From Vicugna vicugna (lineage: Eukaryota), in assembly GCA_013265495.1 (NCBI GenBank), contig MU057700.1, positions 186,001 to 250,000 on the forward strand: a DNA stretch of 64,000 nt, in the 5' to 3' direction. Below the pieces are notes generated by a model. The model was not told where the DNA came from and did no database searches. It saw only the letters and a program-made list of their open reading frames with translations. A program made the position numbers and the translations under genes. Numbering within the stretch: position 1 is the first letter of the stretch; each line of letters begins with the position of its first letter. Positions 5,603 to 61,142 of this stretch are shown here, in pieces.

Positions 5603-5990
5603 TTTTTGTTTTAAATTGAAATTGGAGAATAGCTGTTTTAAAATGTTGTGTTAGTTTCAGGTGTACAGCAAAGTGATTCAGTTATATATACATTCTTTTT
5701 CAAGATTATTTCCATTATAGTTTATTACAAGATATTGAATATAGTTCCCTGAGCTGTACACCAAGTCCTTGTTGTTTATCTGTTTTATATACAGTAGCGT
5801 GTATCTGTTAATCCTAAACGTCTAATTTATCCCTCCCTCCCCCTTTCTCTTTTTGTAACGATAAGTTTGTTTTCTGTGTCTGTGAGTCTATTTCTGTTTT
5901 ATAAATAAGTTCATTTGTATCATTTTTTTTTAGATTCCACATATAAGTGACATCATGTGAGATTCCTCTGTCTGACTTACTTCACTTAGT
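5603..5990 (-). mobile_element. L1 3' UTR fragment
   Basis: Antisense L1 3' end, including 'tttttttttagattccacatataagtga' at ~5922-5950. Confidence 0.8.
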
Positions 5991-15290: not shown

Positions 15291-17258
15291 ATAGAATATC
15301 ACTGGATCTTTTTTACTTTATCCAGTCTGAGATGTTTATTGTTTTAATGGGAGAATGTACCCCAGGCATCTACTGTGATTGAAGATGTGCCTGGCTTGAT
15401 TCCTGCCAGTTCATTTCGTTCTTCCAATTCCCACTCTATTTTGGTGGTTTTACATTTTCTTTTCCTTGCCTTTTGTTATACTGGTTTATTTACCATTATA
15501 CCAATTTATATACTGATTAAATTTACTCTATTTATTTTGTTCTCTGACAAATATTTTAAGTCATGGGAGAATAATATAATCCTTAAATTTTAATCTCCTG
15601 GTGTAATTCTTAAAATTTTAACATATTGCTAAACTTTTTTTCTATTGATGCCTAACATTGATCTCTACTTCTATTTTCTTCCCAAACAAAACAAAATTCT
15701 CAGCAGAGTATTCTCTACCTCAGCCCCCTCTATCATTTCCCATAAAATTATGACCTAGTATTTTTCCAGATTATTATACTTAATATGTATATTTAGTATA
15801 CATATTATGTATTTAGTCACATATGTATATTACAATCTGTACCTATTTCATGTTAAAATTATTCTCTCCATAGCTTCTAGTATTATTTTCCTTCCTCCTA
15901 TATCTATTTTGCATTCTGCTAGAATATACCTTTTCATAATTGTTTCCCACAGTTTATGGGTAATAAAAGTTATAGGTACCTGTATATCTGAAAACTTTAA
16001 AAATTATTCTTTACATAAAGATTTCTCTATGAACAGAAATCTGTATTTTAAATTATTCTTATTCAGGGTTTTGCAGGTCCTGTTCCACATAGGTTGCATA
16101 AATGTGGAAAAGGAGATGCTTTATGAATATTTCTTTCTTGTTCATTTGGATAAACTTTTTAAAATTTTAAATCTCTGAAAGTTTTAGGTATCTTCCTTTA
16201 TTCTTGGAAGTCTGAGATTTCACTGAGATACTGGATGGATGTATATGTATGTGTGTGTGTGTGGTTTAGAGTTTTATTGAGTTATAGTTTATGTACCATC
16301 AAATTCAATCATTTTGTGTGTACAATTCAATGATTTTTAAAGGTTGTGTAACCATTACCACAATCCAATTCTGAAATTTCTTTTTTTAAAGTTTAAAAAA
16401 TTTGATTTTTTCTAACGAGGCAAGACTCTTTTATTTTTTGGGCTTTGTTTAGAAGAAAATAGTGCCACATTGGTTTATTATATCTTGTTTAGAACCATTC
16501 TGGACAAAGAAAAAGCAGTCTACACAACTCTGAAAAGAACAAACATGTTTGGCTTTTAAGAATGCTAAAGGAAAGTCACTTGAAAATTTAAAGCTCTCCT
16601 CGTTTTTGAGCATCTGGTATTATAAAGCAAAATACATTCCTTTGTTCATGAAGCTTTTTTTTCTGTAGAATAAAATTAGGAAGGTAATAGGAAAGGAAGC
16701 AATACTTGGGTCATATTAAAGTAAGGATAGTTGACTAATGTCATGATTTAAAAACTATTAACAGGGATCAAGAAGTTTAAAAAAATAAAAGGGTAATTAA
16801 GCTATTGAATTATACTAAAAAAGAAATGTGGCAGATTCTGGCATTTGTTAATGTTTCTGTAAGAGCCTGCATCATAAAACTGAACTGTAAAATTATTTTC
16901 TATATATAATATATAGGACACAAAATGAATTTTTAGCAAACGTTAGGAAATTCTTTTGTTATAAATTACCCAGATTTTATAAACAAATCCCCCCTAACTT
17001 GGATTTTGTTTAAAGTAGTATCTTTAGATCATACAAATAAATGTCTAGTATGAAAAGTGCATTATTGCAGCAATACCTCTTTGCAAGTCCAAAATTCTTG
17101 GTTTGTAATAAAACTGTAAAGAATTTTTTAAAAAAGGGAGTAAAACCATCAGTGCCATTTATTGAAGTCCAACATCTTAAAATGTTGTTCAACAAGTTGC
17201 AGAGAAACACGCCTGGCAGCAACATGTAACTGAAGAGAAACTACTTGTGCTTTTTTTG

Positions 17259-17290
<32 letters not shown>

Positions 17291-17743
17291 TTACCATTTT
17301 ACATTATTACTGTCTCTAGTATTTCCTCCTCCTCAAATAGAAATTCGCATCCTCTATAAGGGTGCTCTTGATTCAGCCACTCTGTGCAGTCACCACTCGC
17401 ATGCTTCGAAAATCACCTTTCTTCTTCATGTGTTCTCTTCAAACTGCCTGTGATGCCAGAAGGAATAGATAACGACCTTTCTGTCTGAAATGGCAACATC
17501 ACCTGTATTGTTAATTTTGCTAGATAAATGGATTCATATTCCTGAAGATGATGGACAAATCCTGCATTAGAATTAATACAAAATCTTCTTTCTTGAATGT
17601 AGGCAAATGCACCTCTGTACTTCATTCCAAATGTTTCCACAATGCATGCGGAAACAAAGGCAGCATTCCTGGAGATCCCTGCATTCCCATGGACGAGAAC
17701 TTTTCCTCCACTTTGGGAAAGCCCATCAATAAATTCTTCACTC

Positions 17744-17802
17744 AGCGGGGAGAGGATAGCTCAAGTGGTAGAGGTCCTGGGTTCAATCCCTGGTACCTCC
17801 AC

Positions 17803-17859
<57 letters not shown>

Positions 17860-17897
17860 AAAAAATAAATTACTCCCCCCAAAATTAAAAAAAAAAC
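17744..17897 (+). mobile_element. Vic-1-type tRNA SINE with (TAAA)n tail inserted in the STYX pseudogene CDS
   Basis: gatagctcaagtggtagaggtcctgggttcaatccctggtacctcca followed by (TAAA)n; TSD aaattcttcactc (17731-17743) / aaattcatcattc (17898-17910). Confidence 0.88.
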
Positions 17898-18145
17898 AAA
17901 TTCATCATTCGGGGGAAAAACATATTTTATTTTCAACTGGATTTTCTGCAATATCCAAGACTAAATATCTAAATAATTATTGAAAGTTAGGCTTAAAAAT
18001 TTTGCTTCAATATTTTGTCTTATATGTATTATATGAGTTATGCCATGTTTCTGTAATATAGGTAGCTTGCTTTTCATAGCAGAAGACCTAGAAACAGTCC
18101 AGGTAAAATTTCCTACACCTCTCCTCTCATAGGGTAGGTCCATTC

Positions 18146-18457
18146 CATATGATCCAACAATCCCACTCCTGGGCATATAGCCAGCGAAAACTACTATTTG
18201 AAAAGATACATGCACCCCAATGTTCACAGCAGCACTATATACAATGGCCAAGTCATGGAAACAACCTAAATGTCCATTGACAGAGGACTGGATAAAGAAG
18301 TTGTGGTACAGTTATACAATGGAATACTACTTAGCCATAAAAAGAATAAAATAATGCCATTTGCAGCAACATGGATGGACCTGGAGATTGTTATTCTAAG
18401 TGAAGCAAGCCAGAAAGAGAAAGAAAAATACCATATAACATCACTCGTATTTGGAAT
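18146..18457 (+). mobile_element. 312-bp L1 ORF2 3'-terminal segment, antisense to STYX, with splice-site-defined ends (captured exonized L1)
   Basis: Homologous to the L1s at 1053-1623 and 20396-20708; no 3' UTR, poly(A) or TSD; ends coincide with the L1 antisense acceptor and donor. Confidence 0.9.
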
Positions 18458-20059
18458 CTTGGTGTCTTCTTTGCACTGTGGGAGCAAGGGGAACTCCAGC
18501 TTCAGGTCCTCCAAGGTCCTGGTCTGCAGGCTTGTGGATGGGGTGGGCTGGGAGTGGGAATTATCTGGCAGCCTGACCCTCGGACTGGCAGTGGCAGTGA
18601 GAGGAAGCAGGGCAGGTAGACTGGAGGAATGAAGGGTAGGCAGCAGGCTTACAGTTAAAACATGCAGATTAAAGGGTCCCAGCAACTCCAGCAACAGCCA
18701 GGAAGAGGAGGGTTGGGAGGTTCATTCCCAGCCACCGTGCTGCTCGTCTCCCCATCCCCGCCCCCAGTCTCCACACCCATCAGGCCACCCCCAGTTCTGA
18801 AATTTCCATCACCACCCCCTCAAAACATCCTTTATGTCAATCTGCAGTAAATTACTAATCCTACTCCCAGCCCTAGGCAGTCACTACTCTACTTTCTGTC
18901 TATAGATTTGCCTTTTCTGGGCATTTAATACAAATTGTCATAAAACATGTGGTCTTTTGTTTCTGGTTTCTTTCACTTAGCATAATGTTTTCAAGGTTTA
19001 TCTTTGTTGTAGCATGTATCTCTACTTCATTACTTTTTGTTGCCAAATAATATTTCTTTGTATGGATACACTATTTTATCAGTTTACTAGTTGATGGACT
19101 TGTTGGCTATTATGAATAATGCTGCCATAGACATTTGCATTCACATCTTTGTGTGGAGATAGGTTTTCACTTATCTTGGGTAGATACCTAAGAGTGGAAT
19201 TGCTTGGATCATATGGTGAATTTACATTTACCTTTTTAAAAAAGAACCGAAGTGTTTTTCCAAAGTAGTTTCATCGGTCATATTTCATAAGCAATGTGTG
19301 AGTGTTCCAGTTTCCCCACATTCTCACCAAAATCTTGTATGGATGGCCTTTTTATTTTTTTTAATCATAGCCATGCTAGTAGTTGGCAAACATATCTCAC
19401 AGTGGTTTTGATTTGCATATCCCTAAATGACTAAGAATGTTGAACATCTTTTCATTTGCTTATTAATACTTCCTGCATATTCTCTGGTGAAGTACCTCTT
19501 CAAATACTTTGCCTATTTAAAATTTAAAATTAAAAACTCATTTGCTAATTTGTAAGAGATATTTATATATTCTGAATACAAGTCTTTTAGCAGATATATA
19601 ATTTACAAATATTTTCTCCCTGTTTCTGGCTTGATTTTAATTTTCTTAATCATGTCTTTTGAAGTGTAAAAGATTAAAATTTTGAAGCCTAATTTATTTG
19701 TTTATCTTTGGTTGCTTGTGCTTTAGTGTCACATCTAAGAAACCATTGTTTAATCCAAAGTCATGATGATTACACCTGTTTGCTTCTATATAAATTTTGC
19801 TCTTACATTGAATTTTCAGATCTATTTTCAGTTAATTTTGATGTATGGTGTGAGGTAGGGTTTAACTCCATTCTCTTACATGTGACTATTGAGTTGTCTC
19901 AGCACCATTTGTTGATAAGACTATTCTTTCCTCCATCGAATTGTCTTGGCAACCTTTTCAAAATCAATCGCTCATAAATGTGGTGGTTTATTTTTGGACT
20001 CTCAATTCTATTGCATTGATCTTGTTCTCTCTATGCCTTTGTGCTGGTATCACACTCTT

Positions 20060-21462
20060 TTTTTTTTTTACATTTTTTTATTGATTTATAATCATTTTAC
20101 AATGTTGTGTCAAATTTCAGTGTTCAGCACAATTTTTCAGTCATTCATGGACATATACACACTCATTGTCACATTTTTTTCTCTGTGATTTATCATAACA
20201 TTTTGTGTATATTTCCCTGTGCTATACAGTGTAATCTTGTTTATCTATTCTACAATTTCGAAATCCCAGTCTATCCCTTCCCACCCTCTACCCCCCTGGT
20301 AACCACAAGTCTGTATTCTCTGTCCATGAGTCTATTTCTGTCCTGTATTTATGCTTTGTTTTTGTTTGTTTGTTTGTTTTTGTTTTTGTTTTTTGATTCC
20401 ACATATGAGCGATCTCATATGGTATTTTTCTTTCTCTTTCTGGCTTACTTCACTTAGAATGACATTCTCTAGGAGCATCCATGTTGCTGCAAATGGCATT
20501 ATGTTGTCGGTTTTTATGGCTGAGTAGTATTCCATTGTATAAATATACCACCTCTTCTTTATCCAGTCACCTGTTGATGGACATTTAGGCTGTTTCCATG
20601 TTTTGGCTATTGTAAATAGTGCTGCTATGAACATTGGGGTGCAGGTGTCATCCTGAAGTAGATTTCCTTCTGGATACAAGCCCAGGAGTGGGATTCCTGG
20701 GTCATATGGTAAGTCTATTCCTAGTCTTTTGAGGAATCTCCACACTGTTTTCCATAGTGGCTGCACCAAACTGCATTCCCACCAGCAGTGTAGGAGGGTT
20801 CCCCTTTCTCCACAGCCTCTCCAGCATTTGTCATTTTTGGATTTTTGAATGACGGCCATTCTGACTGGTGTGAGGTGATACCTCATTGTAGTTTTGATTT
20901 GCATTTCTCTGATAATTAGTGATATTGAACATTTTTTCATGTGCTTTTTGATCATTTGTATGTCTTCCTTGGAGAATTGCTTGTTTAGGTCTTCTGCCCA
21001 TTTTTGGATTGGGTTGTTTATTTTTTTCTTATTGAGTCGTATGAGCTGCTTATATATTTTGGAGATCAAGCCTTTGTCGGTTTCACTTGCAAAAATTTTC
21101 TCCCATTCCGTAGGTTTTCTTCTTGTTTTATTTCTGGTTTCCTTTGCTCTGCAGAAGCTTGTAAGTTTCATTAGGTCCCATTTGTTTATTCTTGCTTTTA
21201 TTTCTTCTAGGAGAAAATTTTTGAAATGTATGTCAGATAATGTTTTGCCTATGTTTTCCTCTAGGAGGTTTATTGTATCTTGTCTTATGTTTAAGTCTTT
21301 AATCCATTTTGAGTTGATTTTTGTATATGGTGTAAGGGTGTGTTCTAGCTTCATTGTTTTACATGCTGCTGTCCAGTTTTCCCAACACCATTTGCTGAAG
21401 AGACTGTCTTTATTCCATTGTATATTCTTGCCTCCTTTGTCGAAGATTAGTTGACCAAAGGT
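20060..21462 (-). mobile_element. Young 5'-truncated L1 with an open 340-aa ORF2 C-terminal fragment
   Basis: ORF 20332-21354 includes the CCHC region ([18 protein letters not shown]); poly(T) at ~20060; 10-bp TSD tcacactctt at 20050-20059 and 21463-21472. Confidence 0.95.
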
Positions 21463-43775: not shown

Positions 43776-44389
43776 AAGGTCCTAGACCTCGCCAAGGTGT
43801 GTTACCTTCCCATTCTTCCATCCAGACCTCTCCAACCTGTGGGCTTCCTGGCCCCAGATTTGTTCCATATTCACCTGAGTCTGGGCAGCCTGCAAGGGTC
43901 ATTTCTGACCTCGACCCCACCTCCCCAAACCCAGGTTGTTGCCAGAGAACAGGGATACCCCTTCAGAGAGACAGGAGGCTCCGCTGGGAGCCAGAAGACT
44001 TCTTAGTGGTTTTGGAAAAATGGGGACTATGGAATTTCCCAAGATGGTTTTGGACCCTTGCTCTGCCACTTACCAGCTCTGAGATCCTGCAGGGTCACTT
44101 CACTTCCTAACCATCTGTTTACTCATCTGTCCCAGGGCAACACCACCAACACCAACCATACAGAGTGGTTGTGATGGCTAATGGGAATAACCAGAGGGAC
44201 CAGATTTGCCCGCGGAAGCTCTTTAACTGTCAGATGCTGATGATAAAAATTTTGGCGGCTCTCAGAGAACCCCCAAAGGGTCTTTTACAGGAGATGGACA
44301 CATCACCTTTTAGGTTGTTTGTTACCTTATCCTTTATAAAATGAAAAGCTGGCTCTGTCGCTCCCTGCTCCCTCCCTCTTCACCCTCAA

Positions 44390-45430
44390 CCCCTACCCTT
44401 GCCCAGCGCCCTGTGCCCTGGACACGCGCTCTACCTCGCCTTGCACCTTCCGTTCGGCACTTTCCCTCTCCACGCGCCTGCCACGCGCCCCTCCTCACCC
44501 GGCGCTCTGGCCCCACACACTCTCTCTCGCTGCGCCCTCCTTCTCCCGGCGCCCGCCCCGCACCCTTGTCCCGCGCCCGCCCGCTCCCCACGCTCTCGCG
44601 CCCGCCCGCTCCGTGCCCGCACCGTGCCCGCCCCGTGCTCGCTCCGCGCTCGCTCCCTCGCTCGCGCTCCCCGGCGCCGGCTGCGGAGGGAGCCGCTCTG
44701 CCCGCAGCTGGCGCAGCGCGGGGGCGGCCGCGGGTGGGCGGGTGCCGCGGGCCCGGGTGCCGAGCATGAGCCGCCGCCGGCGCCGGCCGCGCGCTGCTCG
44801 GGGCCCGACTGCGGCGCGAGGGCTGCGCTGGAGCTACGCTGGCCCGGACCGAGGTAGGCAGCGGCCGGCGACCCTCAGTCCCTCAGTCCCTCCCTCCCTC
44901 CTGCGGACCGTCCCCTCCGGTCCCGGCGCGGACAGGGCGGGGCGTGCGCGGGCCCGGGGTCCCGCCCCGCGCGGCCGTCGTGGGGTCGGGGCGCAGGCTC
45001 CCGGCGCTGGCCGGGGGACGCGCGTGGAGGAGGGCGTGCGGGAGCCCAGTGCGGAGTTGCCTAGAACTCCGCCCCGGGCTGGGCAGCGCCGGGACCCCCA
45101 GTCCCCCGCCCCTGCGGGGCACCGGGCGGTCTCAGCCTGGGCGTGACTGGAGCGCACTCGGCAGGTTGGAATGGGCACCCGCTGGCGGGTCCCTTGTCCC
45201 GGGCCTGGCGTGGAGGAGGGGGCTGGGAAATACGAGGCGCTGGGGCTGCGCAATTGGAAGTTTCCATTGGTTTGTCTGCATTCTGGGGCCCGCGGTGGCA
45301 TCTCACGCCCTTGCTGTTTGGCGAGGAATTGGGGCGTGAGCTCAGCATTTGAGGGGAGCTGGCCAGGGCGAGATGCCCACCTCTGCACCGTGAACAAGGG
45401 TCATTTCAAGGACCGCGCTCTTTTTGCCCA
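44390..45430. promoter_or_regulatory. CpG island promoter of a plus-strand gene (identity not recognised)
   Basis: Very high GC and CpG density, multiple GC boxes (CCCGCCCC, GGGCGGGG), followed by a consensus splice donor. Confidence 0.9.
44600..44853 (+). other. Probable first exon (TSS approximate), ending at donor GAG|GTAGGC
   Basis: Donor GT at 44854-44855 in the island core; ATG at 44766 (A at -3) is open through the donor; no recognisable coding exon downstream in the window. Confidence 0.6.
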
Positions 45431-46556
45431 GGCCCTCCCTGCTGGAAACAGAGCCTGGGGCAGGTGCAGCTGGTTCTGGTCTGCTTATGTGAGGGGATAG
45501 GGGGCCCTTGCTGTTCAGGGAGGGACACACAGCCGGCCCCTTGTCCCCTGTATCTCTAGCTGCTTCTGCGCCATGGAGCTGGTGGATATTTACAGCGAGC
45601 CCACCTGCCTCTTGGGAGCCGCCCGGAAGCTGAGATGCGGTGGTGGCTGGGGGCACCCTCCTTCCCTGCTTAGAGTTGGGAGCCCCGTCTGGTTCACCCT
45701 TCCCACTGCTGTCCTGGTTCTCTCAGCCTCTGGAGCAAGAGAAGGGCCCGCATGGCCATCTACCCCAGGGAGCCTGGACATGCAGATTCAGGTTGGCGTG
45801 CAGGGCCACCTCACAGAGGAGGTCTGTTCTGCTCCTCAGGGATCTCCCACCTCCCTCTGGACTCAGTCTTGCCCAACCCAGCCTAGCGTGTGTCCAGGCC
45901 CTTCCCTGCTTGGGTAGGGTGTGTCGCACCCTGTTGTGAGCAGGAGGCCACAGGTCTTGACTTTTGAGCTATAGGCTGACTGCTGGCTCCTTCGAGACTT
46001 GGTTTCCCCATCTATAGAATGACGCAATGGTTTCAGTGACTTCTGAGGCCATTATCCCCCTGACATTCAGGGACACTTTACATTGAAACTTCAGGACCCC
46101 CGCTCAGAATAGGAGGAGGGGATCCATGGGGAGGGGAGGAAGTGGAGGGCCTTGGCTTGGGACACAGGAGTAGGTTTTCTGCCCCTCCAGCTTTTCTTTG
46201 TTCTTAGGGACACATGTCATAGTGACCAGCAGCCCTCTGGGGTTGCAGGCCTAGGTGGGGGTGGCAGCAGAATCTGCAAGCCCTGGTCCTGAGAAGAGTG
46301 AACAGGATGGACCCATTTGCTGACACCCTCCCAAGGGCAGCTGTTTGCTTTAGCACATGGCTCCCAGGTTTGGGAGCACAAGCAGGTGTCCCCAGGTATG
46401 CCACGGGGGCCCAAGAGCCAGCCAACAAGTTTGTTTTTCTCTGGGAGGCAACCTCAAACTGCCAGCCTGATGGCTCCCTTCCACCTGGCAAATTGTGGAA
46501 ATGGAACAGTTCACACAGAGCAGAGGGGTTTTTAGTGTAACTTAGCAACTGCAGGC

Positions 46557-46617
46557 GGAGGAGGAGGAGGAGGAGGAAGAGGAGGAGGAGGAAGAAGAGG
46601 AGGGAAGGGGAGGAGGA
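46557..46617. repeat. (GGA)n/GA-rich purine tract
   Basis: Direct observation. Confidence 0.9.
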
Positions 46618-49600
46618 ATACTGGCACCACCAGCATTTGTGCTGTGTCGGCTGAATGAGACCAGTGGCTGCGGGGCCCAGGCTGAAGGGGGAAGGCATCT
46701 CCAGCACAAGTGGCCCCCCTCCAGCTAGCCGGGTGAGGGACAAACTCGCTAGTCCATCTCCTGGGTCTTCTGGAGGAGAGCGGTTGCAGCCAGGATGCTC
46801 AGATGTAGCCAGAGAGCCCCCGAGCACACCTGTCTCCCCATCTTGGATAAGGGGCTGAATGAGCAGTATTGGAATAGCGTCGGTTGATCTTTGGTTTTTA
46901 ACCACAGACCCCTGTTCTTGAGCAACATGTTTCACAGAAGCCAAATTTGTCAAATAGGCCAAGTGAAGGTGCAGGGCGAGGAGCAGGAGGTTTGAGGTTC
47001 AACCACTGCCCTCAGGAGAGGGGGCTGGGGCTGCAATGGGCCCGTGTAGGATGCACATCTCTGCAGGACCTACCCCAGAAGCCCACAGTAGGAGATGCAG
47101 GTCAGGGCCTGTCCAGGTTGTCCTGACTCAGTGTGGCTCCCAGTCCCAGCCCAGCCCTCCTGCTGCCCCTGCTGGGACTCCTCCGCTCCCCCTCTTCCCT
47201 CCGGAGGCCATCTGCTGCAGCCCTGGGCTGCTCTGGCTGTTTTCTCTCTCAGAGCTTCCAAATGCTGAGCAGAAATCTGCCTCCTGTAACTCCCACCCAC
47301 TCCAGGCTGCCTTGAGATCCTTTGCCCTCACTTGCCCACCTCCCTCCTGCAGATGAGTGTTTACTTAGCAACATGTCTTCCAGGCAGAATCTGAGGAGGG
47401 AGGCAGGGAGGGAGGTCCATCATCACAGGGTACCTAAGTGGCATCAGTGGGGAAACTGCCAGGCCCATGGCCATGGGAGGCGAGGTGGGCCTCTGACACC
47501 CATTGGCCACATGTCAGGGCCCCCTGATCTGCTGGGGCCTCAGGAGGACAGTCTGTCCTTTTTTAAGAGGGTGTGCCCTTCTCATGTCTTTCTGGGCACA
47601 GAGACCGGGTGTGTGTGTATGTGTGTGTGTGTGTGCTGGAGAGTGAACACAAGGCTGCCCTAGGCTGGTACAAGAATGGCCTGGTCACTATGGAGTCATC
47701 CAGAATGTCCTTGCACTGGGGACACCAGGAAGTCCAAGTCTAACAAGCTTGGAGCCAGGTTGGGACAGTCAGCTGACAGCAGCCTGGCAAGGGCATGACA
47801 GGAACATGGAGGGGAAAGCCGAAAGCCTCGCCACATCCTGGCCTGCTCGGAGTGTGCGAGGGCCAGGGACCAGGCGTGGAGGAGAGGGGCTCACCCCGGG
47901 GCGGGGAGGGCTTCGAGGATTTGCCTCCTAGGATGAGCCTCAGGCCCTATAAAGAGGCTCGTGAGAGGCGTCTGGTCTACAGTGTGAAAGTGTCAGGGTC
48001 CACACTGATACCAGCCAGGGCCAGGGAGAGGCAGGGTGGCTGCCTGTCGCTGCCCCTGCCTCAGGGTGGACAGTCAGATGGCCTCAGGTGTCTGCAGAAG
48101 CATTTCCTGAGAGCCACACAGGCGTCTCTGAGTATGATTCAGGGCAACACCGAGCAGTCCTGCCCTGGAAGCTTCTCCTCATCTCATGTGTTTGACAGGG
48201 AAGCCCCTCAGGGTCAGTGAACTGGTGCCGAGATGTGCACACAGCACAGGAGGAAGGGAACCTCTCGCCCCCCTGACCACCATAATCGCCTACACTGGGC
48301 AGGGGACGGGCTGGGGACTGTGCTGCCCACGAGCTCCGGGCCTGCCGTGTCCCTTCTGAGCGGGCTGTGAGGTTCTCCCGGGCCCTCACCCTCCCTCCGT
48401 GGTGCAGGGTGAAATCGGGTGGGGTGGGGAGTGGGAGAGCCCCACCTCCAGGAGGGGAGGCCTGGGCCTTGATGAGTATCCAGCTTTTCAGAGGAGAGCA
48501 TCCCATTTTTGTTGCGGGACGCATGTGCAGGGAGCTGGCCCCTGGGGTGCCGCGTTCCATTTGTCCAGCTCCTTGGAGGAGCGGTCAGTGTAGCTGCCCT
48601 AGTGGACTGTTGACAACCTCAGAGGTGAAGTTACTTGCGCGAAGCTTCTTCCAGTTTAAACACAACAAACCTTTCTTGGCTGTCTCCCCCTCCAGCTATT
48701 TTGCACCCCACGCTCCTCCTCTGCACGGACTGACTCTGATGGGTGTTCTCTGCTTGCTCACTGCGCGTCCTCACTTCCCACTCTCCCCAGCCCACTCCCA
48801 TCTGGTACGCCCCTGACTCCGGGGAACAGGTCTTCCGAGGCCCATGGACATCTCCAGCCCTGCACGCATTCACAGCCCCTGCTTCCAGGCTGTCATCCCC
48901 CTGGCTCTGTAGGCCCAGACCAGTGCCTCCATGTCTTCCGGCCCCCCTGCAGACCTCCCCTCCTCTCTGGGGGGCACTCAGGTTTCCTGTTCCTCAGGAC
49001 CTGGGCACACCCCTATCTCCTCCCCACTGTGGCTTCTGTTCCTTCCTTGATGCTGATCCCGTCCCAGCTGCTGACTACCTCCCAGGTGACCACAGGCAGC
49101 CTGTCCACTGTCATCGCTGCCCTGAGCCTCACTTGCTCCAGCCCCTGCATCTGAGTAGGTGGGACAGCCAGGGTCTCCCTCGAGCCTCTGCCAGGTCAGC
49201 CCTCACATTGACTGAGTCTTCAGTCAGTCTGCCCTCCTCCCTCTCTTTCACCCCCTCCTCGTCCCCCTGCCCATCACAACTGCCAAGGGTTGGGCTGCCC
49301 TCTCCTGGCTTGGACAACTGCAGTGGCCTTCTCCTGCAGAGCTTTCCCCACACCACAGCCAGGTGCCCTTTTTCACCTTCTCTTTGTAAAAATGCCTGGA
49401 GTCTTCTGCTGCCATGCAGGACTGCCTGTCCCAGCCTAGTTGGCTCCCAGCCTTCCTTAGGGTGCCTTCCGGCACAGGTGTGCTGGGAGGGGTGTCCTGG
49501 GCCTCTGCAGCACGCTGCCTCTGTGCAGTTGTCTGTCTGGGATCCCTTGGAGTTAAGTCTATACCTGGCCTGTTGGCCCCGGTTGGATCACCAGCTCCAA

Positions 49601-49942
49601 GATGGTGGCTGTGCTGGAGGACTCAGCAAACAGTCGTGGGATGCGTGCGAAAATCTGTGAACTGCTGTGCGTGGTGGGGCAGAGAAGCGCAGATCAGTCT
49701 GGGGAAGTGCCTGGCCTGGGCCACATTGCTATCCCCCTTTCAGGGAGAGGAGAGGGAAGCTGACTGACCCACAAGTTCTGGGACAGGCCAGGCGGTGGTC
49801 TCTGGAGACCTGGACCTGTTCAGGAAAGAGTAGTGGGGGTGGGGCTGGAAAGCCAGGCCCTTGTCTGTTGTCACCACCACTTCCGTTTCTCCAAGTGTCA
49901 CCCTCAGACTCTACCTTGAAGAGAGAGTTCTCCCTGGATCTG

Positions 49943-49956
49943 GTTGTCATGGCAAC
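49943..49956. promoter_or_regulatory. RFX X-box motif
   Basis: GTTGTCATGGCAAC, a 13/14 match to the palindromic GTTGCCATGGCAAC. Confidence 0.55.
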
Positions 49957-52052
49957 ACTGTTAACAAAGAGTAGCTTCCGTGGAGGAGGCTGGCTCACCC
50001 AGAAACTGAGGGGGCTGGGAGAGGGTGTGCGTCTGATGGGTTTATTAGTGGGGGCCTGTGTTTGTACCCTTAGCAAGGCCCACATCACGTGGACCCTTCA
50101 GCCCATGGGGCTCTCTGGGCCTCTGGTACCCAGACCCTCCCAGTATGATTGTCATGAAGCCTCAGTTCCGTCTGGGTGTGGCCTGGACCCCAGCCACAAC
50201 TGGGTCACCAGGCAGGCCAGGGAGGCCTCCGACTTTGGTGGTGGGGAGGATGTGTCCAGCCCTGGCGCCATCACTTTCCAGGATGAGGACCCCGACTTTG
50301 TCACTGGAGAAACCCAGACGCAGAGGCCGGGACTTCTTTTGCCTAGGACTTCCCTGAAGACTGGATCTGTGCCCAAGCCCCTTAGGTTGTGAATTCTGAA
50401 CAAGGCCTGCCCAGGTTCCGCTCCTCTGAGGTTACGGTTTGATTGAATGAGGTAGTGACACGCAGTGCTGGGTGAAACCCTAGAGCCTGGGAGCCCTGGT
50501 CATCTGACTGCAGATGGTTGGGCCTGGGATCCAGGTCTCTGGCCTCAGAGCTGGGGGAGGGAGAAGGAGGGTGAGAGGCTGGCCACGGGGACCAGCTCAG
50601 GGATTAGGTTGGATGGGGTTGGAGGCTCATGTAGAAGGAGCTCATGGAGTTCCTAGGGGACCCACCACAGCTTTCATGAGTTACTCACTCGGAGCAGGCA
50701 GGAGGCTGAGTCAATTATTCATTTTATTGTGGTTATTTCAGTGGGTGGCACCTGCTGGACATACGAAGCCAGTAGCAGGAGAGCATCGAGGCTGCCCTTG
50801 CAGGAGTACATGTCCTGTCCACACTGCCCATGGCCAGCCAGGGCCCTTCCCCCTCAGCCCCACTGTGGGAAGGGGCCTCCATGCCCTGCGCCCTGCCCTC
50901 CTTGGGCCTGGGAGCCCAGCCCACCCCAGCTCTGTGAGCCCTCGCTGCTGGGATGTTGGGTGAGCAGCTGGGCCCTGGGCCCTCACTGCTGGGTCAGCAA
51001 CGTGAGGGTTCTTGAGGACTTCAGAGTGAGCAGGGTTGGCCCGGGCCCAAGCCGTTCCTCTGGGAGAGTCCAGGGCAGCCAGAGTCACTTCCAAGAGTGG
51101 GCTTGTCACTTGGGGCGGGGCCTGGAGGGGAGCCTCCCACAACGTGCCAGTCACCTCCCTACCGCCCCCAGCCACGGAGGGCTAAGGAGCTCACGCGTAC
51201 TTGTAGAACCGAACAGTTAATGATGGGAACATTCATGAAAATTGCCTGCAAATTGGCGGTCACAACACCTCAAGGAATATCACTGAAACGCTATGATTCA
51301 GACCCTGTTTTCTGCCTACAATGCAGTTATGATAGAAATTAATAACAACACGTAACTCTAAACAGTCTAATATTTGGAAATTTTGAAACGTGTAAATTCG
51401 TGACTCAAAGAAAAAAATCATACTGGCAATTAGATGATAATGGACTTAAATGATAAAAATATAATGAAGGATACTTGTGGGACACAGCCATAGTGGCACT
51501 GCAAATGTGTCACCAGCTGACCTTGTCTGAAGAGCCTATGTTCTTTGAGACATCCATGTCGAGGTGCCTCCTCCTTGGCCTTGGCCAATGGAAAAGGGAC
51601 GCTCCGGGCGCCTTGGGAAGGGGTTAGAGGCAGGGAGCAGTGGGCAGTCCTGTGACTGCCAGGGTGCCTGAGGTTGGTGTGGAAGCCCCTGGCTTCTCCT
51701 TGCTGTCAGGCCAGGCTGGGTCTGGGGGAGCTGCTCTGCGCTCAGCTTGCAGAGACCAGGAATTTTAAAGCACACTTTCTGGCAGCCCTGGCCGCCAGGG
51801 TGCAGCCCCAGGTCCTAGCCATTCACAGCCCTGGAGAAGGATGTCAGGGGTGTCGAGGTCGGGCTGAGACTTTGAAGCGCTGTTATGTGAGGTGGCTGGG
51901 GACACTGTTAGGGAAGGAAAGGAAGGACCAGTGCAGGGAAAGGCCCAAGGCTGCAGAGTGGAGAGAGGACAGAACAGCTGGTGGTATGGTGGAGGTCAGA
52001 GCCCTCGGACCACCCTGTCTGTGCTGAGGAGCTTGGTATGCTGGGCGCGTTT

Positions 52053-52107
52053 TGTGTGTGTGTGTGTGTGTGTGTGTCTGTGCGCGCGCGTGTGCGCGCG
52101 CATGTGT
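52053..52107. repeat. (TG)n-(CG)n alternating purine-pyrimidine tract
   Basis: tgtg...tgtctgtgcgcgcgcgtgtgcgcgcgcatgtgt. Confidence 0.9.
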
Positions 52108-53854
52108 GGAGGGGAGGGGATTCTGACCAGCCCTCTGTCCCAAGGCCTCTGCTGAGCATCTCACTAATACCTGACTTAATTTAATGCTGTAAACGTTTCT
52201 TATTTTTGGTGCTGGCATCATTACACCAGTTTTGCTGATGAGCCTCTTGGTCCTGGGGAGAGAGGCGAAGGCAGAATTTGAACCCAGATCTTTCCTCTGT
52301 GCCAAAGAGCACTTTGGTGATGTGGAGTAGGTGATGTGCTTCTTTGGTGCCTCTCTTCCTTTTCCTGTGCCCTTCCAGGCCCTGAGGTGGCTCTCACCTC
52401 TTTCCTGATGTTGACCGTGACCTACCTCCATCCCTGTGCTTCTCTGAACTCACACTCACACCTCGGGTCTCAGCTTGGCCAGGGCTCCTAGCAGGAGCTT
52501 CTTAACCTCCTGGGGCGGGTGAAGTGCCCTTTCTCTGGGGCTGTAGGGCCCCAGGGTCTTGTGATGGTGGTAACTAGCTCCCTGGGCGCTCTTCTAAGTG
52601 CTTTGCCTGTGTCCATTTAGCTCACACATACCTTTGAAAGGCATGGCTTAGGTCAGATTCCCCAGATGCAGAGACTAATGGAGGTTCTGATGCATGGGGT
52701 GCAGAAGGTGTGCTCTCAGGGGGCCAGCAAGCAGGTAGGAAAGGGGAGGAGACCGTTTCAGGCTAAGCCTCTTCTGACCCTAACTGCATGGGGGACTTCG
52801 GAGTGCAGACTGCACTGCCAGCTTGTCCTGTGAGGCAGGGGACAGGCTCTGTCCCCTCTACTGCTCAGCTCTTGGCTGCTGGCCCCTCCAGTCCTCTGGA
52901 GAAGGTTGCAGGTGTGAATGGCACGGTGTGCTGGCCGCCCTAGGGGACAGGTGCCCCAGGCTGGTAGGGGGTCTTAGCAATCTAGGTGAGCCCCAGTAAC
53001 ACCCTGCCGCAGGTGCCACTATCACCCCTGTCACCCCCCACCCCAGGCAAGAGGCTGCCTGCTTTCTCCGTAGTCCTTGAGGGGCTTGGTGTGCAACCTC
53101 AGGTCCAGCCTGCTTCTGCCTGTGGCGTCCTGTGGTCTGGCTCCCACGGCCCTGGCCACTTGGCCATGATGCCTCATCTTCCTGGGTGCATCTGCATGCG
53201 CCTGAGTCCTCTGCTTTGTGCTGCTCACTGTGGGGCCCCTGGACTGAGGGCTGTGCTGGTGCACGGAGGGGCTCTGTCAGTTTGTCCAGAGACCTGACCA
53301 ACAATCACGGTTGTCAGCCTGGGCTCCATGGCGGGACGCTGGGCAGCCAGAGGTGGGAGAGCCTAAGACTGAGGGCTGTCCAGAGCCCACCAGACCCAAG
53401 AGAGGGTCCTGGCACCAGGCCAGTGAGGGTAGTGTGGGGTGAGGGGCCCTGGCCTGGCTGTCTGGGGCCCACATTCCAGCCCCCGCCCCGTCTCATCGCC
53501 CACCCACCGCTGTCCTGCCCAGGGCTGATTGGCTCCCTGGGGTCCCCACTCTGGTATGGCCAGCAGTAGGAGGGCCCACAAGCTCTTCCTGGCTTCTTGC
53601 AGCCCAGCTCAGGGGTGGCAGCACAGGGCACTGACCTGGAGGAGGCAGATGATTAGGGGCAAGTGAAAGATGGGCTATGAGCCTGGCCCCTGAGAGTGCC
53701 CTGGGGCAGCATCCTCTGGTAGCCCACCCTATACCTGCTGGGCCCCCCACAGTGCCCTGCCATCCACGCCACTGGCCTGCCCAAGCCACGCTGTTCCCCT
53801 CTTCCCAACCCCATCCCCTCCTTATCCTGTTTTGTCTTCCCTGTTGCACACTTT

Positions 53855-54125
53855 TCACCCCTTAGTTACATTAGCCATATATTTTTTAAAATTGCAGTCA
53901 GTTGCAATCTGTTAGTTTCTGGTGTACAGCATAATGTTTCAGTCATACATGTACATACATATATTCGTATATTTGTTTCTGTATTCTTTTTCAATAGGTT
54001 ACTACAGGATGCTGGATATAGATAGATAAATTTTTATGTATTTTATATATAGTAGTTAATATTTGTGAATTTCAAACTCCCAATTTATTCCTTCCCACCC
54101 GCTTTCCCCCCAGTAACCATAAGTT
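53855..54125 (-). mobile_element. Short L1 3' UTR insertion
   Basis: 15-bp TSD cctgttgcacacttt (53840-53854) / cctattgcacacttt (54126-54140). Confidence 0.8.
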
Positions 54126-57099
54126 CCTATTGCACACTTTGAACTTTTCTTCCTCTGTGCTCCAAATGGCGCTCCTTCCTATCAAGAATGGTCCAGGGAG
54201 GGCCCTAAAGCCTCTCGGTTTGCTTGGCCACATTCAAACCTGTATCTAACAGTGCCTCAGCTCTGGGCCCCTGGAGCAGCTTTGGGCGGGAGGCCCTCCT
54301 GTCAGCACCTGGCCACCTGGCCTGGGAGGGCAGGGTGCCTGTCACTGTGGCCGGAGGGGCCTGGCATGAGCACAGCCTGGCGGTGAGTGGACACAGGTGG
54401 TCCAGCTAGCTCCAAAGCTCTTCCCTATGATGCTGGGGATCTCCAGTTTTCATAGATTGGTAGCCTCAGCGGCATTTTTCGTAGAAGGTTCCAGTGCTCA
54501 TGATGCTACTTCAGTCTTCGAGGTTCCAGATGCTGGAGGACTCAGGGTCCCCTCTGAGACAGGAGCTAGGGCCAGGAGGACAGAAACGGACCCACTGGGG
54601 GTTACAGAAAGGGTCACTTCTTTTTCAGTCAGGGTCACATGGCTAAGAGGTTGCAGAGTAAGCTTTGGAGCCCAGGCCTGCCTGATGCCCAGGTCCAAAG
54701 GCTCTGCCCCCAAACCCAGCAAGTAATGAGATTGAGCTGGGGGTCCCAGCCCCCTCCCACCGAAGCCCCTCTGGTCCCATAAAGTGGAGGCAGAGTGGGG
54801 CTTCAGGGAAGTGGTAGCCTCTGTGCCCAAACCTGCCCATCCTGACTCCCTCTGGCTGCCTTCTCCAGCCTGAGCTTAGCCCAGACCCCCTCTGCAACCT
54901 GCCCCCGGCACCTGGTGTGGCCACAGGAAATGCACTGCAACCTATGGCTTCAGATGCAATGTGGCAGGTGGCTTCCTGGGTTGTCCCCCTGAGGGCTGTC
55001 CCCCTGTTAACTGAGGGCTGTGAGTACCAGGTGAGCCATGAGTGTGAGGGCAGGGCAAAGGGAGAAGGGCCCTGACCGGGCCGGACCTCAGCGCTCACGC
55101 TGCCCCAGCAGGAGGGTGTACAGACCTGGCCCTGCCCTTCACCTCAGGCCTCTGGACAGGCTGGCTCGTTTGGCAGTGCTGGTTTTGGACATTTCCGCCC
55201 GTGAGTCCCCCATCTCCCACACACGCCTACTCAGATGATCCTGAGTTGAACTGAATTAAACTGCTCCTGTGTTTCCCCATCTTTTGGTAACGGGTTGACT
55301 AAAACAGGGTTTTCAGAGCCCCGGGTCCCTGATTGGCTCAGGGGCGGACAGGCCTCTGTCTGTGCTCCCAGACACACCCATCCCCCTGTCCCCTGCTCAC
55401 CTGGGATGTGTGACTTGTGCCAGGGGTTGTAAATGTTGGAAACTTCCGAGCCTCTGCAGCTCTGACGTCAGAGGCCCTCGTGTCCTGGCCCCAGCCTACC
55501 ACCCTTACCAGGCTGCAGCCGGGTACCTTGGCTGGAAACATGACTGCCTGGTCTGCCTGGCCCTGGGTGGTGGGAGGAGGGCGGCTGTGGCCCCATGAGT
55601 CTGCCAGTCCCACGGGAGCACACCCATCCCAGGCCAGCAGGGATGGCCGGAACAGGGCCCACATGTCCCCTGTGGGAACCCAGAGAAGAGGAACCCAGCT
55701 TCAGTCAGCTACTTTATTGCAGGAATAAAAGTGATAAACAGCCTAGTGAGACCGTTACCCAGGCTGGTGTTAGAGGATGATAATGTGCCTGTCCCAGGGC
55801 TGCTTGAAAAGGAGAGGGTGCATGGACTCTGGAAGCTGTCATTGCCCAGTTCTCTGTGCATGCGTGGCCGGGCTAGGGAGGAAGGGGAGGCCTGGGCAGA
55901 AGCATTGCTTCACAGGACACTGGTGCTGAATCGGTCTTCAGGCCATATAGGACAGAGTTGGCGACTGGGACGCAGAGGAGTGTGGGCTCAGGTGTCCACA
56001 GAGTGAGACGGATGTGGAGGGGTGGCATGGACCCAGGCCTGCCCTCCTTACCACATTACTGTGACCACTAGAGTCACATAAGACCCACATGCCAAGGTGC
56101 GGCGCACCTCTCCCCTCCCTGAGTTGGACTCAGGCAAAGCCCCTGAAGAACCCAGAGAGCCTAGGCAGGTGTCCAGTCATCATCCTGTCGTGGGGGTGCG
56201 TGCGGGAAGCTGTGTGCCAGGCCGGGCCCAGGCTCTGGGAGTGCAGACAAAATCCAATAATAGATAGAGAACAGCACAACAGGTCATTAGGGGGCTATTG
56301 GTGGGGGCAGGAGGTGCTGGGGTCTTCCATGTAGGGTAGAGTGAGCAGCACAGCATCACGGGGAAGGCTTTGCAGGGAGGAGGGAGGATGCCGTGTGGAC
56401 ATCGGGAGGCAGGGACTTCCCTGCAGAGGGACGAGCTATTCCCAGGTTCCGAAATGGATGCATACTAGTGTGTCTTGAAATGCCAGGAAAGTGGGGGGGG
56501 GGGACACAGTCCACTGATGACAGGTCATCCTGAGGTGAGCCAGGGGACTTGTGGCTTGACTGAGGTCTCACGCCACCTCCATGGCTCACCCATATCCACG
56601 CGTGTATGGCTCCAGCAGAGGGGCAGCTGATCTGCCACACTAGCTATGTCCCAGCCCCAATGTGGACAGTCCTGTCCCCCCCCCTTGGGGGGCCTGCTTG
56701 GGGACGGGGCTAAGATCAAGGGAGTCGTATTGAGTGTGGGGTGCTCTTGGAATCACTGAGAGGCATGGCTTGTGTGTGGTCATGTGGGTGGAAATTCTCC
56801 CCAGCTCTTCCTTTTCCTTGAATTTCCTTTCCTCTCCATTTGCAAATCCCGGTATTGTATTTATTTTAATAGCATTCAAAAAGTAAGATGGATCGACGTG
56901 GAGCACGTCTCCTCCCATCCCTGGCCAGCTCTCGCCTCCTCCCAGCTGCGGTTATCTGTTTCCTGAGCACCCGTCCACCTGTCTGGTCCCTGCACACCGG
57001 CAGCACATCAGTTCTTGTCATGCACGTGGCGGCAACGGCCAAGCACTGGCTTGGCTTCACCTCAGAGCCCCTATCTCAGCGTGCCTAGAGTAGCCTTGA

Positions 57100-58600
57100 T
57101 GTTTTGAGCACCTGTGCGGTCTCCTCATGATGCATGTGTGATAAACCGTTCATCCAGGTGCTGAAAGGTGGCCATTCAGGCTGTGTCCGCTCTCCTTTTA
57201 TAAGCAGGGCTGCAGTGAGGATCCATGCACAGGTATCATTTTGCTTGAGTGTGAGCACAGGTGTAGGATAAATCCCTAGGCATGGAGTAGAAGGGTGAAA
57301 TGGAGGTGCAATGATGATTTTGATAATTTTTGCCAAACTGTTGTCCACAGCGACTCTAATTTATACCTCTACCAGTGATGTATTTGAGTACCTGGAGCTC
57401 CCGCATCCCCTTATCTTTGCCAGTCTGACAGGGAGAAATGGTATCTCGTTGCAATTTTAGTTAGCATTTCTCTTACAGTGAATGAGATTGACCGTATTTT
57501 TATATGTATAAGATCCACTGGTATTCTCTATTTGGTGAACTGGTGTTTAAATTATTAACCTTCTTAATAATAACCTTATATATTTCTGTGGGGTTGATGG
57601 CAGTTTTCTTACTGATTCATAGAAGTTCTCTAAATATTAGGAAACGTACTTTGGAGTGTGAATTGTAGATCTTTCCCCCGAATTACTGTGTTTTCATTTT
57701 GTTTGTTACGATTTTTGCCAGGCAAAGTTTTAAAAAATGTATGTAGCCAGAACCATCATTTTTAAAAATGGTTTTGGGGCTTTGTAACATACACGAAATC
57801 ATGTGAAATTACTATTTCTGTAGGCAATAATGCTTGTCTGCTAATACTTTCATGGGATTCAAACTAACAGAAAAGCCTTCTCTTCTGTGAAACTATAGAG
57901 CAATTCTCGTGTGTTCTTCACGTAGGTTTACTATTTCATTTTTTTTGAATGTGAATATTTGATCCATCTGCTGGACTCCAACTTAATTTTTTTCCAGATG
58001 GCCACCCATTTGTCTGACACCACTTCTAATTACCTTTTCTTCAGTGATTTGAAATCTCACCTTTATCATATACTGAGCTGCCATATGTGTTTGGGGTTAT
58101 TTCTAGACTTTCTTGTTGGCTTCATTGCTCTGACTGTATATTCATGTGCTGGTACCATGTTTTACATTTAACCATTATTATGAAAATTAAGTTGCAATGA
58201 AAGTTAAAGAGAATAGAATAATGAACCCACGTATTCTCATTCCCCGGATTCAGCAGTTAAGATTTTACCAGCTTGCTTCACTTGCACATTTTCTTCCTCC
58301 CTCCCTCCCTCTTTCTTGTCTTTTCCTTTTCTATTATTCTTTTTCCTGAGCTCCATAATTTGCCCCTAGATACTCTGGTATAGATCTCTAAAGCAAACAA
58401 ACAAGGCCATTTTCAAACACAACCACACGGTCAGTAGCACACTTCACAAAATTAACAGCAATTCCTTGCTATCATCCAACACCCAGTACACACGCAGTTT
58501 TCCTTAATTGTCTTGAAAATGCCTTTGGCAGTCAGTTTGTAAAATTGGGAACCAAATTAAATCCACATGTGGCATTTGGTTTGCATTGTTCTTTTCCTTT
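57100..58600 (-). mobile_element. Highly degenerate old L1 (L1ME-like) fragments
   Basis: ORF 57085-57348 contains L1 ORF2-like PSTPCLGIYP...TAALLI; AT-rich antisense L1 motifs. Confidence 0.6.
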
Positions 58601-58701
58601 TTCTTTTTTTTTAATTGAAGTATAGTCAGTTACAAGTTGTCAATTTCTGGTATACAGCGTAATGTCTCAGTCATGCATACATATGCATAGATTCGTTTTC
58701 A
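58594..58701 (-). mobile_element. Short (~108 bp) L1 3' end insertion
   Basis: Perfect 18-bp TSD ttggtttgcattgttctt (58576-58593 / 58702-58719) and a T-rich tail. Confidence 0.88.
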
Positions 58702-60959
58702 TTGGTTTGCATTGTTCTTAAGCCTCTTGAATCTAAAGCAGCCCCTTCTTCCCTGATCACCTTTTTTATAAAGCCATTGGCTTGTTGCAGAAACTTGGTG
58801 AGCTGTCTGTGGAAGGTCCTATTTTCAAGACTTGTCTGTTTGCTTCCTCTCAGTGTCGTTGAACTGGTTCCTCCACTCCTGGTATTTCCTCTGGACTGGA
58901 ATTTAGCTCAAACAACTCCATTTTGTGGGGGTTCATGTTTTCTTAGCAACAGTGCTTCATGGTGCTGCTATATTCTTTGCATCGCATCGTAGCCGGAGTC
59001 TATATCATGGTGGGTCTTGTTGCAGTGGGCGTGAACGTGGGGGAGATAGACCCTCCTGCCCTGGCATTCATTTGTCCATCCTTCTGACTGTTTCAGCCAT
59101 TGACAGCCACTGTCTGAGTATGACATCCAGGGTTGTAACATGGAACCTTTCTAACTGTTCCTTCTGAATGCATTTGTGGAATTCTAATATGAAAAAATGT
59201 TCCCTCATCAACCAGGGCTATTTGGGTTTAATCATCTCATTAAAAATGGAGGATAAGTGCTCAATTCTTTCCTTTGCCGACACGAGTTTCTTCTGATCTT
59301 TGCAATTTGTGCTTGTTTTCCTAACTCAGCAGCCTCACCTGACCACACTCCTTTTCAAGTTTTCATTACCATTTTTTTCAGGGATAGCCCTGTATTTACT
59401 GTAGAATCCCTTTATCTGGTAGGTCTTAGCCTTGTTAACTGTGCTGGTATTTACTGTGGTTATCACTGAGTCTCAGTCAGACGGTTTCCTCATTGTGATG
59501 TCACACCCATGAGGTTTCGCATCAGTCCTGATATACCGAGGGGCAGTCTTACAGCAGGTGAGGTTTGTTTTTCCCCCGAATGCTAGATCTTGTCGGAGCA
59601 GAAATGCCTGCAAACGTTTGGGAGGCTGGTGAAGAGGCTGCATGGAGTAAGGCCCGCCTGGGACATGGGGAGAAGTGCCTCCCAGCTGTCTTGTCTTCTC
59701 TCTGTCCATGGATGTGAGCCATCGGTGCATTAGGAGAGGGGGTAGGAGGGGAAGCTGAAGGCCCGTGCAGGCACCACCACCTATCGAAACCAAAGAGGCT
59801 CCTTTGCAAGGTTGAGACAAGGAGCATCTCAGGATGTGGCAGGGCTCCCAGCTGGAGGAGAACCTGGAGCACTGAGGGAGGCGGGGCACACACGCAGTCC
59901 CTACAGAAGCTGGGTATTCCCAGTGAAGGGCCTGAGGTGACATGGATGCATGATGAAGGGCCTTGGGAGCTGGTCCGGTGCAGCCCCTGGAGGCGCAGAC
60001 CTGGGTCTTATGGGAAGGAAGGGTCTGTTGGGGCAGGGCCTGTGGGAAAGGCCAGCACAGAGGGTCCCTGGACTCCAGACTCCAGATCATCGCCCAGCTC
60101 CATCCATGCTGACGTTTGGGGGTCTGAGCCTTGCCCCTGTCCTGCCTTTGGGGTCTGATGAGGCCCCCTACGGATGGGATGATGCTGGTGTGGATGATGG
60201 GCAGTGAGCAGGGGTCTCTGACTTCACTGGCCAGAAGAAGCCACTGGGAGTAGAATCCACATCTAGGAGCTTTCTTGCCTCTCTCTGACTTTCACAGCCC
60301 GGCCTCGTCCCAGGCTTGGAGCTGAGGCACCAACTGCGAGGGTGTGGTGGTACCTGAACGAAGGGTTCCTAGTGTTCAGGTGGCCTTGTCTTCCCTCCCC
60401 TCCCACCCCAGGCACTCGGACCCAGATGTCTGTTGACTGAGTGAACAGGTGGAAGCTGCCTCCCCCAACATTGCAGTGCCGAGGCCACCAGGGTGGGCAC
60501 ACTGGCGGGCCATCTGGACTGCTGCACATCTGAGTCAGCACTGTGATGGGGCATCCAGAGGTGTGTGACCGATCACAGGGGTTTGCTCTGCTGGGGGTTG
60601 AGAGTCTCCCCTGAGGTGAAGCATTGAGGAGATTGGTGGGCAGTGGACCAGGGACCAGAGGCGGGAGCAAGCACAGTGTGGGGGAAGCGAGTTTCTTGAA
60701 GCTCCCAGGACCACCTGTCTGATGTGGGGGGCAGTGGGGGCAAGGGCACAGCAGGCCCAGGGCTTCCTGCTTCGCAGGCTGGGGTGTTCTTCCCCCACAG
60801 TGTGGCCTTCATCCCAGCCACCTGCTTCCTAGCCCTGCCCAGCCTGGCCTGGGCTCCTGCTGACCCGGAGGCTGCCTCTGGCCGGGAGGGGCGCCGGGCT
60901 TTGAGCACAGTGCCTCCTTCTTTCTGTTCTCAAGCCATCTCCCAGCTGTGAGTTTAGAT

Positions 60960-61142
60960 CAGTTCTTAAAGAGGGGTCCCAGGACAGCAGCATCAGCATC
61001 CCCTAGGATTACGTTAGAAACGGGGGTTCTCAGGCTCCGCCCCAGACCTCCTGAATCAGATGCTGTAGGGGAGGGGGTTGCAGTAAGTGTTTTCATAAAC
61101 CCCCCAGGGGATTCTGATCTCTTTTAAAGTCTGGGAACACTT
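60960..61142. mobile_element. MER5A-like hAT DNA transposon
   Basis: 'cagcagcatcagcatc...gttagaaa...tctcaggctccgccccagacctcctgaatcaga'. Confidence 0.8.

Follow-up and report, generated by a model that had tools for sequence, protein, structure and literature searches.

Introduction

A 312-nt piece of an L1 retrotransposon lies inside a retrocopy of the STYX gene, between the sequences derived from exon 1 and exon 2. The question that this locus raises is whether the piece entered the retrocopy after its integration or was already an exon of the mRNA from which the retrocopy was made. The window, that is, the whole stretch of DNA analysed, comprises 64,000 nt (C677:186001-250000) of a mammalian assembly of 2.03 Gb in 12,405 contigs. 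Regarding its composition, the first 44 kb are AT-rich and L1-rich, and positions 44001-64000 form a GC-rich block, with 0.57-0.66 GC in most 2-kb windows.

The first-pass annotation of the window proposed that an antisense L1 in intron 1 of the parental STYX gene had been spliced into the transcript as a stop-containing cassette exon, and that this isoform had been retrotransposed. In our analysis the two parts of that proposal fared differently. The position of the cassette on the exon seam, the splice sites of sister L1 copies, the missing hallmarks of insertion, an ancestral stop codon and a compatible age make it very likely that the cassette was spliced in, but the source L1 expected in intron 1 was not found there.

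The STYX Retrocopy and Its Parent Gene

The STYX parts flanking the cassette were searched in the assembly, which yielded one intron-containing locus (C2575, minus strand) and two further intronless copies. An exon map of the C2575 locus, covering 42 kb of contig, gave 11 exons with canonical splice sites, and the joined exons encode an intact STYX ORF of 223 amino acids. We take this locus as the parent gene.

By local BLAST against the parent region and by a three-way alignment, the retrocopy of the window (retro1) was delimited to positions 16381-18790 of the minus strand. Within 16412-18790 it contains all 11 C2575 exons fused without introns. The exon 1 portion (18458-18790) holds the 5′ UTR and 19 codons, and its last base is homologous to the parental exon 1 end before gtgagt; exons 2-11 and the 3′ UTR were aligned to the parent over 16412-18145. 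Directly past the last base aligning to the parental 3′ UTR there is a decayed A-rich tail of 31 nt (16381-16411). The whole is flanked by a target-site duplication (TSD) of 16 nt, GAAATTTCAGAA(C/T)TGG, whose 5′ copy, GAAATTTCAGAACTGG (18791-18806, minus strand), and 3′ copy, GAAATTTCAGAATTGG (16365-16380, minus strand), agree at 15/16 bases. An intronless copy of all the exons, the remnant of a tail and TSDs are what is expected of a processed pseudogene produced by the L1 machinery. The product of retro1 still matches the human serine/threonine/tyrosine-interacting protein (PDB 2r0b, E 3.4e-32). Its coding capacity is dead, given that the start codon ATG has changed to TTG and that it carries in-frame stops and a 7-nt deletion; retro1 is therefore an old, dead, bona fide processed pseudogene.

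The part derived from exons 2-11 and the 3′ UTR is split by a later insertion, a tRNA-like SINE on the plus strand (17746-17897) with an (AAAT)n/A-rich tail, which resembles the tRNA-derived SINEs of camelids or cetartiodactyls. At its flanks, STYX sequence from exons 5/6 is duplicated over about 15 nt (17731-17745 and 17898-17912). This element is an internal contrast, as it displays the appearance of an ordinary retroelement insertion at the same locus.

In the two other intronless copies, exon 1 is joined directly to exon 2. One of them (C8150:10911969-10913846, L024) is younger and 95% identical to the parent; the other (C5495, ~5344127-5345900, L025) is older and 72-75% identical to retro1. 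It follows that the canonical STYX isoform was retrocopied both before and after retro1. The isoform with the cassette was recorded once among the three STYX retrocopies.

The Cassette at the Junction of Exons 1 and 2

The cassette occupies positions 18146-18457. In the parent (C2575, minus strand), exon 1 ends as ...GAAGACGCCGAG/gtgagt and exon 2 starts as ...ttaag/GAGTGGACCTACCC, and the codons at the seam read GAC GCC GAG/gtgagt and then ttaag/GAG TGG ACC. The minus strand of retro1 reads ...GAAGACACCAAG / ATTCCAAATACGAG ... GGATCATATG / GAATGGACCTACCC, with the codons GAC ACC AAG, the 312 nt, and GAA TGG ACC. Since the bases of retro1 on both sides of the cassette equal the parental exon ends, the cassette sits exactly on the exon 1/2 seam. 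The alignment to the C2575 gene thus bore out the earlier placement of the two edges, 18457/18458 and 18145/18146, at the parental exon 1/2 junction with 0 STYX bases lost or duplicated; the figure of 57 coding nt (19 codons) for STYX exon 1, given in the first-pass annotation, agrees with the parent in the same genome.

The plus strand of the cassette encodes a match to residues 1189-1236 of human LINE-1 ORF2p (1274-1275 residues; E 1.4e-19), so the L1 sense is the plus strand and the cassette is antisense to STYX. It corresponds to the antisense of about the last 312 nt of L1 ORF2, and its end lies 2 nt short of the ORF2 stop codon. As recorded in the DNA of the retrocopy, an L1 sequence antisense to the transcript lies exactly between two host exons, as in an exonised antisense L1. 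The cassette abuts the STYX bases directly and, as had been noticed earlier, has no poly(A), no L1 3′ UTR and no TSD, which an L1 inserted in the usual way by target-primed reverse transcription (TPRT) would show; by contrast, retro1 itself and its SINE both bear tails and TSDs.

The cassette is 104 codons long. Its in-frame TAG at 18266-18268 (minus strand) was verified at that position; it is cassette codon 64 and the first stop in the STYX frame. At the aligned positions 27/29 sister L1 copies also have TAG, which makes it the family state, and the exon, if it was in use, therefore almost certainly carried the TAG already. Considering that nine exon junctions lie downstream of it, the isoform with the cassette is a presumptive target of nonsense-mediated decay (NMD) by the established NMD rules. 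The term poison exon, used for the cassette in the first-pass annotation, can be upheld only as a description, for an exon with a premature stop; the lack of a source for the exon in the present STYX gene argues against a maintained function.

Splice-Site Context in Sister L1 Copies

The set of 29 sister L1 copies consisted of the nine top matches to the cassette, with 1.5-kb flanks, and 20 more with 100-nt flanks, all belonging to the 40 that were scored out of 7541 candidates. On the antisense strand, AG is found immediately 5′ of ATTCC in 20/29 copies, typically as ttttttttAG/ATTCCACATATG, and GT immediately 3′ of CATATG in 24/29, mostly as GTAAGT (/GTAAGTCT). The copies without the AG or the GT carry what are apparently point-mutated or indel-shifted forms of the same motifs. 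The A-run 3′ of the ORF2 stop codon, read on the opposite strand, makes up the polypyrimidine tract. The AG and GT that should border an exonised L1 are thus present in most of the sister copies, the source copy itself being absent. Within the window, the acceptor TTTTTTTTTAG/ATTCCAC (5922-5940; also the reverse complement of ~1271-1290) and the donor GTCATATG/GTAAGT (20701-20714) were located as previously described.

Strong sites of this kind are scarce. In six 3.3-kb antisense-oriented L1 loci there were 0-3 GTAAGT and 2-6 acceptors (at least 12/13 pyrimidines) per locus, and retro1 carries 10 exon junctions in ~2.1 kb. By rough arithmetic, the probability that a random fragment would match the seam and both splice sites is far below 1e-6. 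Because the boundaries of the cassette coincide with poly(T)-AG and GT/GTAAGT in the sister copies, splicing is by far the best explanation for them; to our knowledge, it is the only process that cuts at the seam and at both L1 positions.

Some individual copies deserve mention on their own account. L003 (C2222:3505213-3505524) is a 5′-truncated L1 that starts exactly at CATATG, the donor edge of the cassette, and continues through the ORF2 end to a normal 3′ UTR of ~330 nt and a poly(A). Its flank beyond CATATG has no match in the ORF2 flank of a sister copy, and we take the start to be a chance truncation point. In L047, L048, L049, L050, L052, L053, L056 and L061, otherwise ordinary L1 copies, runs of G or C take the place of part of the poly(T) before ATTCC, for example tttttggggggggg; these could be assembly homopolymer errors or real mutations. 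In L051 (C3700:800543-800564), beside a run of N, the antisense ORF2 3′ end abuts a sense-strand segment that resembles the 5′ part of L1 ORF2; this copy could be a 5′-inverted (twin-priming-like) L1.

Age of the Cassette and of the Retrocopy

A cassette that had entered the retrocopy later should be younger than the STYX sequences at its flanks. Retro1 was aligned over 1840 sites with the parent and the younger C8150 retrocopy, and the changes private to retro1 amounted to 167/1840 (9.1%): 42/270 (15.6%) in the 5′ UTR, 57/658 (8.7%) in the coding sequence and 68/912 (7.5%) in the AT-rich 3′ UTR. Across all 1840 sites, the C8150 copy had 66 private changes and the parent 18. After correction, by the parent/retro2 rate ratio, for the change in the parental lineage between the births of the two retrocopies, the divergence of retro1 itself was ~7.9% overall and ~6.4% in the AT-rich 3′ UTR.

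The cassette differed privately from 12 L1 copies at 19/312 positions (6.1%), with a FastTree terminal branch of 0.069, and from 29 copies at 15/312 (4.8%), with a terminal branch of 0.070 (median of the sister copies, 0.057). These values are lower bounds, since taking the closest of the 7541 candidates for comparison biases the divergence of the cassette downward. At 4.8%, the strict private divergence falls a little short of the estimate for retro1. Taken as ranges, 4.8-7% for the cassette and ~6.4-7.9% for retro1 appear compatible, and 312 nt leaves room for a modestly younger cassette. These ages also hint that the L1 was young at its capture.

The Cassette in Other Genomes and in Other Genes

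The region 17900-18800 was represented by 94 sampled words, which were searched in sequencing runs. Considering that the cassette makes up ~35-39% of this region, a genome without it would contain at most ~0.61-0.65 of the words. In 14 DNA runs under three coded species labels the share was 0.79-0.92, above that ceiling, and by this indirect measure the cassette is probably present in all three. The share was 0.06-0.12 in six RNA or metatranscriptome runs (X15-X20).

It had also been suggested that the same latent exon could exist in many intronic antisense copies of this L1 family; to its use in many genes two weak scans lent no support. The protein search for gene models with the 63-residue cassette peptide returned 21 unnamed metagenome ORFs and was uninformative. 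The genome was also scanned for ATTCCACATATGAG preceded by six non-T bases, with 16 matches against 0 in the control. By inspection, roughly 8 proved to be ordinary L1 copies whose homopolymers were altered, the others were short or rearranged, and one lay at an assembly gap; a 312-nt piece bordered on either side by non-L1 sequence was seen in 0/16 of these matches to an exact 14-mer, a scan of low power.

Intron 1 of the Parent Gene

Parental intron 1 spans C2575:2079799-2090036 (10.2 kb) and contains no N. BLAST of the whole retrocopy region, cassette included, against the parent region at E<=1e-5 hit exons only and nothing in intron 1. When the cassette was searched against the intron with word size 7, only old L1-like stretches were found, at 2083644-2083847 and 2081391-2081583, 61-66% identical. 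Seven 3.3-kb sister loci gave a single match of 80 nt, 76% identical, at 2083385-2083463. It is noted that C2575:2083385-2083847 holds an old fragment of L1 ORF2-3′, antisense to STYX and from the same ORF2 region as the cassette, with 61-76% identity to it.

The true source L1 would be expected to be roughly 85-88% identical to the cassette. The L1-like fragments of the intron (61-76%) were rejected as its source, being too diverged. The prediction of an antisense source L1 in STYX intron 1 was accordingly not borne out at C2575, whose intron 1 has no L1 of the cassette family, only the 61-76% fragments. For Vicugna vicugna this is an outcome that the first-pass annotation had itself named as counting against its proposal, and the source that an exonised L1 should have in the corresponding host intron was lacking at this locus. 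Nor did the best genome-wide match fall in intron 1 as predicted: among the 40 scored of 7541 candidates, the best non-self matches were 88-92% identical to the cassette and had ordinary L1 flanks. Genome-wide similarity was rejected as a way of finding the source L1, since at this divergence a true source would be indistinguishable from the other copies.

Origin of the Cassette

Taking these results together, we infer that an antisense L1 cassette was spliced in and retrotransposed with the STYX mRNA, a reading to which we give a probability of about 0.85. The course of events would be as follows. An L1 of a family active at that time, or at least its 3′ part, would have lain antisense in STYX intron 1 of a germ-line genome. 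In the pre-mRNA, the A-run after the ORF2 stop would be read as its complement, a polypyrimidine tract ending in AG, and 312 nt beyond this AG the complement of ...ACTTAC/CATATG... would form ATG/GTAAGT. The spliceosome would have used both sites and placed a cassette of 312 nt between exons 1 and 2. The length of the cassette preserves the frame, yet the TAG inherited from the L1 would leave the isoform non-coding beyond codon 82. One mRNA with the cassette would then have been reverse-transcribed and integrated by the L1 machinery, with the formation of TSDs and an A tail, followed by decay; the SINE would have entered retro1 after its integration, and the source L1 would later have been deleted, never have been fixed, or have belonged to a gene copy that was lost.

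The absence of the source L1 from the parental intron is also what would be seen if splicing had played no part, and all the explanations of that sort, jointly with everything else not considered here, we regard as unlikely. In one of them, an internal fragment of L1 DNA or cDNA would have been captured at a double-strand break in the retrocopy, by endonuclease-independent or filler insertion, at a site that is the exon 1/2 seam by chance. Such captures also come without poly(A) and TSD, and the strict private divergence of the cassette, 4.8%, is slightly under that of retro1, as a later arrival would have it. The event would need, however, three independent exact coincidences, namely the seam among 10 in ~2.1 kb with 0 bases lost, an edge at poly(T)-AG and an edge at GTAAGT, in loci where each 3.3 kb offers only 2-6 strong acceptors and 0-3 GTAAGT; moreover, break repair usually removes or adds bases. 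We judge this very improbable. The L1 reverse transcriptase also switches templates and makes chimeric retrocopies in that way, and a jump during target-primed reverse transcription from the STYX mRNA to an antisense-L1 RNA and back would likewise leave no L1 in the intron today. Two switches would nevertheless be needed exactly at the exon seam and at the two L1 splice-site positions, the known chimeras are typically joined end to end and are not internal in-and-out cassettes, and microhomology was neither needed nor seen beyond chance; this is the most improbable of the explanations weighed here. A further variant keeps the splicing as proposed and places it in a second intron-containing copy of STYX, a segmental duplicate that carried the L1 and has since been lost or is unassembled. 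It would account for the absence of the L1 from intron 1 of the surviving parent, but the 2.03-Gb assembly has one intron-containing STYX locus only, and an extra gene duplication and loss would be required; a small chance is what we allow it.

If the cassette was spliced from the STYX gene itself, what became of the source L1? Tentatively, and at a little under even odds, we suppose that it was fixed in intron 1 and later deleted. It is doubtful that the insertion allele was never fixed, though this is plausible for an allele crippled by a strong exon with a stop. A young antisense L1 with intact and strong splice sites would force the stop exon into most transcripts of such an allele, and one of its mRNAs would have been retrotransposed during the short life of the allele. 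In that event, which we likewise hold to be rather unlikely, a deleterious STYX allele with an L1 insertion would have been removed by selection or drift before it could be fixed, and retro1 is perhaps all that is left of it.

Comparison with Known Systems

By keyword search of the open-access literature, we found no published account of the STYX case or of a retrocopy with a transposon exon that is missing from the parent. The case is a tidy instance of a known phenomenon and calls for no new mechanism; its unusual aspect is that retro1 is the sole witness of an intronic L1 that is no longer in the STYX gene. It gives a base-exact example of how the antisense 3′ end of L1 ORF2 is a ready-made cassette exon, with the A-run providing the tract and the AG, and GTAAGT standing 312 nt further on. 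Such a splicing event can stay on record in a retrocopy for tens of millions of years. The absence of the source L1 indicates in addition that retrocopies can record intronic insertions gone from the parent gene, and such records could help to estimate the rate at which harmful exonising insertions arise and are removed. If the insertion allele was indeed never fixed, retrocopies could be mined as fossils of lost mutant alleles, beyond lost isoforms.

With respect to insertions, the cassette derives from the L1 3′ region, as does a 5′-truncated L1 inserted by TPRT, but unlike such an element (L003, for example) it is without 3′ UTR, poly(A) and TSD. Like poison exons, it is an internal cassette with an in-frame stop a long distance 5′ of the last exon junction; in contrast to the regulatory ones, it looks, on sequence grounds, like an accidental and probably deleterious cryptic exon.

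The closest parallel is the exonisation of antisense L1 in the mouse through cryptic GT/AG sites, where 43/52 events were antisense and where, for one acceptor, the L1 polyadenylation signal serves as polypyrimidine tract (Zemojtel et al. 2007, PMC2176070). In that study, as in STYX, the antisense L1 supplies GT and AG, an A-rich L1 3′ region provides the acceptor tract through its complement, and the cassette lies in a host intron. The species and the L1 family are different, and in STYX the acceptor is at the A-run of the ORF2 stop/3′ UTR and the donor 312 nt into ORF2. The type of evidence also differs, being a genomic fossil for STYX and cDNA for the mouse events described there. Retrocopies have been regarded as archives of transcript isoforms (Shemesh et al. 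2006, as cited in Carelli et al. 2016, PMC4772013). Like the isoform archives mentioned in that source, retro1 keeps a non-canonical splice isoform of its parent as a DNA record of past splicing; unlike them, as far as they are described there, its extra exon is derived from a transposon, the source is gone from the parental intron, and the retrocopy is its sole record.
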